In this document: positions 16,226 to 16,242 of the stretch, piece by piece | Layout of the letters: every line of letters begins with the position of its first letter | Position numbering within the stretch: the stretch's first letter is position 1 | DNA from: Escherichia coli | GTDB taxonomy: Bacteria; Pseudomonadota; Gammaproteobacteria; Enterobacterales; Enterobacteriaceae | Length of the DNA stretch: 64,000 nt | Strand: one strand, 5' to 3' | Assembly: GCF_024502345.1 (NCBI RefSeq) | Contig: NZ_JALDNN010000001.1 | Program-made: the position numbers and the translations under genes | Notes under the pieces: generated by a model | Database searches by the model: none | Seen by the model: only the letters and a program-made list of their open reading frames with translations | What the model was told of the DNA's origin: nothing

Positions 16226-16242
16226 AATTGGTCTTACCAATT
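16226..16242. promoter_or_regulatory. PdhR operator (PdhR box) in pdhR leader
   Basis: Perfect palindrome AATTGGT-CTT-ACCAATT just upstream of pdhR start. Confidence 0.6.

Follow-up and report, generated by a model that had tools for sequence, protein, structure and literature searches.

How much of the native pdhR control region survives in an Escherichia coli chromosome that carries a genomic island immediately upstream of it? PdhR, a repressor with GntR and FCD domains, binds a palindromic operator and represses the pdhR-aceEF-lpd operon until it is released by pyruvate, as established in K-12 (PMC7660256). The spacer between aroP and pdhR is also the site at which the small pathogenicity island PAIusp is found in all usp-positive E. 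coli, where the TyrR-activated divergent promoter P3 of aroP drives usp (PMC7142922). We examined both features in a 64,000-nucleotide stretch of an E. coli genome (contig NZ_JALDNN010000001.1, assembly GCF_024502345.1), referred to throughout as the window. A first-pass annotation of this DNA had reported a perfect palindrome at 16226-16242, had read it as a PdhR box retained in the pdhR leader next to an island, and had suggested that sequence beyond about 16250 may derive from that island.

The 17-bp palindrome, AATTGGTCTTACCAATT, is present at exactly 16226-16242 of the window and consists of two 7-bp arms, AATTGGT and ACCAATT, around the central trinucleotide CTT. An exact search with AATTGGTNNNACCAATT returns a single match in the 64-kb window, at this location, and returned no match in any of 100 dinucleotide-preserving shuffles. 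When compared with the PdhR-box consensus AATTGGTnnnACCAATT (core GGTnnnACC), which was taken from PMC7660256, all 14 of the specified bases are matched. Furthermore, the palindrome is the opposite-strand reading of the published K-12 site AATTGGTaagACCAATT, which also scores 14/14 and is located at genome position 122052 (PMC7660256, Table 1). Relative to the pdhR ATG (16194, minus strand), the box lies 32-48 nt upstream with its center at 40 nt, and this offset is the same in K-12. The match to the K-12 site and the distance to the ATG together support its assignment as the PdhR box of the pdhR leader.

It is important to point out that the PdhR box, in addition to being identical to that of K-12, is invariant across every enterobacterial spacer that we compared, including the island-bearing alleles of Citrobacter and Salmonella. 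It would therefore survive a crossover on either side, and describing the box as retained carries little weight. Among the matches listed are also exact copies of the 17-mer from further gamma-proteobacteria (Shewanella, Pseudomonas and Vibrio, for example), some of which are expected to be chance matches. Allowing two mismatches adds one further site within the window, the PdhR-box-like sequence AATTCGTACTACCAACT at 42185-42201, which is located inside the ddlB/ftsQ coding region. A published gSELEX list does include a PdhR site in the dcw cluster, but that site is within ftsI, and we have set the 42185-42201 sequence aside as probably a chance occurrence.

The pdhR coding sequence extends from 15430 to 16194 on the minus strand and encodes a protein of 254 amino acids with GntR and FCD domains (Pfam, 9.8e-26 and 4.9e-17, respectively). 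Mechanical calling of open reading frames opens the gene within the palindrome, at a TTG (16227), whereas RefSeq annotation of related genomes and the K-12 protein place the start at the ATG at 16194. The PdhR protein of the window is the same as that of K-12, and the gene differs by four synonymous nucleotides. Open reading frames of the size of lpd, aceF and aceE lie with pdhR on the minus strand of the window, aroP lies on the plus strand, and aceE is annotated beside pdhR in matching genomes. In the intergenic region between pdhR and aceE, on the strand opposite to the operon, positions 15272-15385 (plus strand) match the candidate small RNA family tp2 (Rfam RF02030; 103.9 bits, E 4e-19).

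For comparison with K-12, the window was aligned to the same locus of the K-12 derivative J53. The distance between pdhR and aroP is 5189 bp in the window versus 540 bp in K-12. Immediately upstream of the pdhR ATG, the leader and promoter region (16195-16375, read on the minus strand) is native E. coli sequence that is identical to K-12 at 181 of 181 positions, after which identity falls abruptly to 58%. Within this block we placed a putative core promoter at 16259-16287 (minus strand), positioning the hexamers by hand from the sequence and from spacing given in the literature: a -35 element, TGGACA, at 16287-16282 and a -10 element, TACTTT, at 16264-16259, with 17 bp between the two and a TG one base upstream of the -10. 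A PdhR box has been located about 11 bp from the transcription start (bioRxiv 10.1101/2025.07.14.664704), which would put the start of pdhR transcription at approximately 16251-16252. A consensus scan for promoters and terminators across 16150-16700 called no promoter and no canonical terminator; the pdhR promoter was missed because its -10 matches the consensus at only three of six positions, below the threshold of the scan. Upstream of the -35, consensus reading suggests a candidate FNR site, TTGATtgaaATCA (16296-16308), and a candidate CRP site, TGTGCacatttTAACA (16315-16330), both of which are kept across the genera compared, and aroP/pdhR appears on a list of FNR ChIP targets (PMC1802558). 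The -10, the -35 and the FNR-like and CRP-like motifs are all contained within the 181-bp block of K-12 identity. DNA beyond about -124 relative to the predicted start is of a foreign type, and any distal control elements located there would differ from those of K-12.

The insertion has therefore left the whole of the known pdhR control region untouched. Compared with the K-12 pdhR-aceEF-lpd operator, the 17-bp sequence, its distance to the ATG, the surrounding 181 bp and the PdhR protein are all the same; the sole difference is that more than 181 bp upstream of the ATG the window continues into foreign-type DNA and then into the island. Given that the operator, the core promoter and the repressor are all unchanged relative to K-12, the sequence makes it very probable that autoregulation of pdhR is intact in this strain. 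Pyruvate would then release a PdhR dimer bound to the two half-sites, ATTGGT and ACCAAT, a short distance downstream of the transcription start.

The usp-imu DNA of PAIusp does lie between pdhR and aroP, so an island adjoins the PdhR box as had been proposed, and it begins distal to the box within the former pdhR-aroP spacer, with cargo from 16447. However, the boundary at about 16250 was misplaced by at least 125 bp. Across 16300-16650, where continued identity to K-12 had been named as the observation that would speak against the earlier reading, identity is complete from 16300 to 16375 and stops thereafter. The 100% identity through 16375 means that 16250-16375 is native E. coli promoter DNA and not island. 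With foreign-type DNA from 16376 and cargo from 16447, the island starts 130-200 bases further out than the first-pass annotation had it.

If the island did begin at about 16250, then the promoter upstream of the box would be island-derived and the operator alone would be native. Base composition could not reveal such an arrangement, since native spacer and island ends are equally rich in AT (GC of 0.33-0.37 on both sides), and alignment was needed to place the boundary. The alignment to K-12 already refutes it, with all 181 positions of 16195-16375 matching. The same conclusion is reached using sites that distinguish K-12 from the island-bearing allele of C. freundii: from 16197 to 16356, 20 of 20 sites that tell the E. 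coli and Citrobacter/Salmonella types apart are in the E. coli state. We consider there to be next to no chance that the promoter came with the island. The last K-12-specific site is at 16356 and the first donor-type site is at 16376, beyond which the window is in the C. freundii state. The interval between them, 16357-16375, is a 19-bp block that does not differ between K-12-type and donor-type sequence, and defines the crossover interval. An imperfect inverted repeat, TGTTAAATTTACCC / GGGTGAGATTAACA (16373-16406; 79% complementary), opens right at the junction between K-12 and foreign-type sequence, and the equivalent K-12 sequence shows weaker pairing.

What, then, is the DNA between the junction and the island genes? 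The first 71 bp (16376-16446) correspond to a pdhR-aroP spacer of the donor type, resembling that of Citrobacter and Salmonella, that was probably brought in with the island. This segment is 86% identical to the island-free spacer of C. werkmanii, versus 58% to the spacers of K-12 and E. albertii, and is collinear with the island-bearing alleles of C. freundii, S. bongori and S. enterica. It also contains a block, TGAACCGATTCAC, that is common to all of the genera compared, including K-12. Indeed, the whole spacer from pdhR to imu3 (16195-16650) is collinear with C. freundii and S. bongori. In order to define the limits of the cargo, the island-bearing locus of C. freundii was set against the empty loci of C. 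werkmanii and Citrobacter sp. FP75 and the result was mapped onto the window. The Citrobacter insert replaces 76 bp of spacer, and its ends are equivalent to 16446/16447 and 21172/21173 of the window, indicating that the cargo extends from 16447 to 21172 (4726 bp).

On the other side of the cargo, a diverged aroP-proximal spacer (21173-21296) includes the -10 element of aroP P3, upstream of usp. This element, TGGTAT as given in PMC7142922, is on the minus strand at 21245-21240 (ATACCA on the plus strand at 21240-21245). Like all of the island-free spacers compared, this segment holds the conserved CATAAAGC.GGTGCATTC block as well as the P3 -10. It is 60-68% identical to every spacer compared and, being about equally distant from all of them, the right flank points to no particular donor. 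K-12-like sequence returns at 21297 (97% identity), 87 bp before the aroP ATG, and the K-12-like leader and aroP itself occupy 21297-22757 on the plus strand, with coding sequence at 21384-22757.

These flanking segments bear directly on whether the locus could instead reflect a clean insertion, in which 272 bp of K-12 spacer gave way to cargo over all of 16376-21296 (4921 bp), with no native-type spacer involved. In a BLAST comparison with K-12 at high stringency, the match ends exactly at 16375/16376 and resumes exactly at 21296/21297, as a clean insertion would predict. Nevertheless, the first 71 bp of that interval align collinearly at 86% with a spacer that has no island and carry the block shared by all genera, the last 124 bp hold the conserved blocks and P3 -10 of island-free spacers, and the insert in Citrobacter is bounded at the inner positions and not at the outer ones. 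Based on this evidence, we regard a clean insertion as very unlikely. Neither target-site duplications nor terminal inverted repeats exceed chance at the ends of the cargo, where the longest junction repeat is 7 bp, a length equalled or exceeded in 44% of shuffles.

Two further features of the aroP side were observed. At 21296-21313, exactly at the right-hand identity breakpoint, the window has CGTAAAGAAATCAATACA where K-12 has TGTAAACAAATTAATACA, a difference of three changes; the K-12 sequence resembles a TyrR box, which we take to follow the consensus TGTAAA-N6-TTTACA. Downstream of aroP, genes for a sugar symporter of the GPH/MFS_2 type (22916-24322) and a GH43 glycoside hydrolase (24322-25272) are located between aroP and ampE, whereas in K-12 aroP adjoins ampE directly. 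The S. enterica, S. bongori and C. freundii loci carry the same pair of genes at this position.

Foreign-type spacer on both sides of the cargo (16376-16446 and 21173-21296) is the pattern expected of homologous recombination. We therefore think it highly probable that the window combines a native PdhR operator and promoter, identical to those of K-12, with an adjacent PAIusp flanked by foreign-type spacer that was imported by homologous recombination. An island-bearing spacer from a relative resembling Citrobacter or Salmonella would have entered E. coli in this way, and the crossover on the pdhR side would fall in the shared 19-bp block at 16357-16375, approximately 115 bp distal to the operator. 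The direction, number and mechanism of import events are what we infer from this mosaic, and the direction could be read in either of two ways, the other being a larger import, part of which was subsequently overwritten by DNA of the E. coli type.

In order to see how widespread this arrangement is, we turned to other genomes. The island is present in 1037-1054 of 5426 complete E. coli genomes (~19%), and 1026 of the 1054 genomes with the island match the window over 16200-16700 at 99% identity or more, indicating that the junction is common to them. A single pdhR-side junction would have been inherited since the import. None of the 5426 E. coli genomes carries the foreign-type flank without the island. 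One E. coli genome (H39), which had seemed to align as far as 16452 and was considered as an intermediate allele, turned out to have an ordinary K-12-type spacer of 540 bp. Outside of E. coli, E. albertii and several island-free Citrobacter and Enterobacter spacers were drawn from the operator-sequence matches listed, and the Salmonella and C. freundii island loci were reached through homologues of Usp. Islands of the usp-imu type are located between aroP and pdhR in S. enterica, S. bongori and C. freundii (CP135622.1), while E. albertii, an outgroup to E. coli, has a K-12-type spacer of 540 bp without an island. In Citrobacter freundii, C. koseri, C. portucalensis and Kluyvera, Hcp-DNase proteins that resemble Usp, at 64-75% identity, are common.

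The closest named Usp outside of E. coli, at 82% identity, is that of Superficieibacter sp. HKU1 (CP119754.1; positions 8001-11697 of the locus examined). In this genome the usp-imu module is located between a gene for a ProP-like transporter and type I secretion genes and not between aroP and pdhR, and homology to the window is confined to 16642-20805. The published generalization that the island is always at aroP-pdhR consequently does not hold for this relative, and the presence of the module at another locus indicates that the usp-imu coding module is mobile independently of the aroP-pdhR site.

The occupation of the same site in E. coli, Salmonella and Citrobacter could conceivably reflect a single ancient insertion, and a common ancient source has been raised previously (PMC7142922). 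In that case the Citrobacter-like island spacer would be an old Escherichia allele transmitted vertically, the K-12-type spacer would be derived following loss of the island, and the junction at 16375/16376 would mark no import at all. However, the outgroup E. albertii has the K-12-type spacer without the island, and no E. coli genome among the 5426 has the foreign-type flank on its own. In addition, the fall in identity, from 100% to 58% in the space of 20 bp, is characteristic of a recombination breakpoint and not of gradual divergence, and the Superficieibacter locus shows that the module can move. We give vertical descent of the island allele little credence, and favor import by homologous recombination.

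The neighboring insertion itself is the known island PAIusp, the subject of several previous reports (PMC3685522, PMC7142922, PMC9686529), in which usp stands for uropathogenic-specific protein, a toxin described as a bacteriocin-like DNase of the H-N-H/colicin type. Its cargo at 16447-21172, on the minus strand, has a GC content of 0.30-0.41 except for the core of usp. The usp gene (19025-20806, minus strand), labelled tssD in RefSeq, encodes 593 amino acids with a T6SS Hcp domain (T6SS_HCP, 8.8e-13), an S-type pyocin domain (Pyocin_S, 6.1e-41) and a colicin/pyocin DNase domain (Col-Pyo_DNase, 3.3e-42). Directly downstream of usp are four immunity ORFs on the same strand, each matching Pfam Colicin_Pyocin, of which three imu/orfU genes are intact (18738-19022, 18040-18330 and 17342-17632) and one, imu3 (16650-16940), is frameshifted. 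Interleaved with the imu genes are orphan fragments of the DNase C-terminus at 18331-18570, 17633-17872 and 16987-17175 (minus strand; Pfam Col-Pyo_DNase). Together, the imu genes and orphan fragments (16650-19022, minus strand) are arranged as four repeat units of ~698 bp. The units were identified by a repeat-family search and were missed by Tandem Repeats Finder, for which the longest period was 500.

One 698-bp unit, composed of an orphan DNase fragment and an imu gene, is tandemly duplicated at 17239-18634 with 98% identity between the copies. The encoded proteins are identical, with 17342-17632 matching 18040-18330 and 17633-17872 matching 18331-18570. There is one unit fewer in FDAARGOS_943, the closest complete genome, and some genomes in RefSeq are annotated with four immunity genes. 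At the 5' end of imu3 (16887-16940), the window is without one copy of a TATATTT direct repeat relative to FDAARGOS_943. This 7-bp deletion frameshifts the N-terminus of imu3/orfU3, resulting in a 78-aa ORF that opens from an internal ATG. Across the remainder of 16195-17300 the two genomes are the same.

Compared with PAIusp of B2 and uropathogenic E. coli, the window agrees in its insertion site, in the genes carried and their order and in the aroP P3 -10 (TGGTAT) that precedes usp, and the sequence of the published orfU3 reverse primer is located at 16653-16672. The differences are that the window has four imu-type genes as opposed to the published two or three, and that it carries the 698-bp duplication and the 7-bp frameshifting deletion in imu3. 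Usp has been placed within the Hcp-ET class of T6SS effectors (PMC9990079), in which Hcp is fused to an extended toxin domain and of which Hcp-ET3 and Hcp-ET4 are described as DNases of E. coli (Ma et al. 2017, as cited in PMC9990079). The Usp of the window shares this organization, with an N-terminal T6SS_HCP domain followed by pyocin-S and colicin-DNase domains and then by immunity genes, a likeness that is known here from sequence alone and that concerns the island and not the operator. No integrase-like ORF was seen among those of 16447-21172, six of which (all usp-, imu- or DNase-type) were scanned against Pfam. On this evidence the island does not show the integrase, tRNA target and flanking direct repeats that characterize classical integrative pathogenicity islands, and it is located in an intergenic spacer and not at a tRNA gene, in agreement with the published description of PAIusp (PMC7142922). 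A scan of 15000-22000 against Rfam gave nothing above threshold in the pdhR-aroP spacer or the island.

The usp-imu genes are co-directional with pdhR, and the imu3 stop (16650) is 455 bp upstream of pdhR. Neither the consensus scan nor a search for hairpins found a canonical terminator in these 455 bp, making read-through from P3 into pdhR conceivable. A perfect 12-bp inverted repeat, GAAAATCATCAC / GTGATGATTTTC, with an 11-nt loop is situated 24 nt past the imu3 stop, at 16592-16626. This hairpin is kept in the S. bongori island, with one compensatory change from A-T to G-C, and is present in C. freundii. Lacking a U tract, it is not a canonical terminator, and it may mark the 3' end of the usp-imu transcript or contribute to the stability of that transcript. 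There is a slim chance that transcription from P3 would read through into pdhR-aceEF-lpd under distal control of the foreign type, with the PdhR box acting in part as a roadblock. If so, expression of pyruvate dehydrogenase in usp-positive E. coli would be coupled to aromatic amino acid signals. Terminators, recombination and the junction on the pdhR side are not covered in the previous description of PAIusp (PMC7142922).

The PdhR box and the part it plays in autoregulation are already known, as is the location of PAIusp at the aroP-pdhR site, and since the operator, its function and the island are all in the literature, the finding matters little alone. What is new is a small detail, the base-level map of the mosaic and the homologous-recombination crossover that it implies. 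The corrected map runs from a native pdhR promoter that extends to 16375, through foreign-type spacer at 16376-16446 and cargo at 16447-21172, to diverged spacer at 21173-21296. Together with the occupation of the same site in Citrobacter freundii and Salmonella, and a related module located elsewhere in Superficieibacter, this arrangement bears on how PAIusp has spread.
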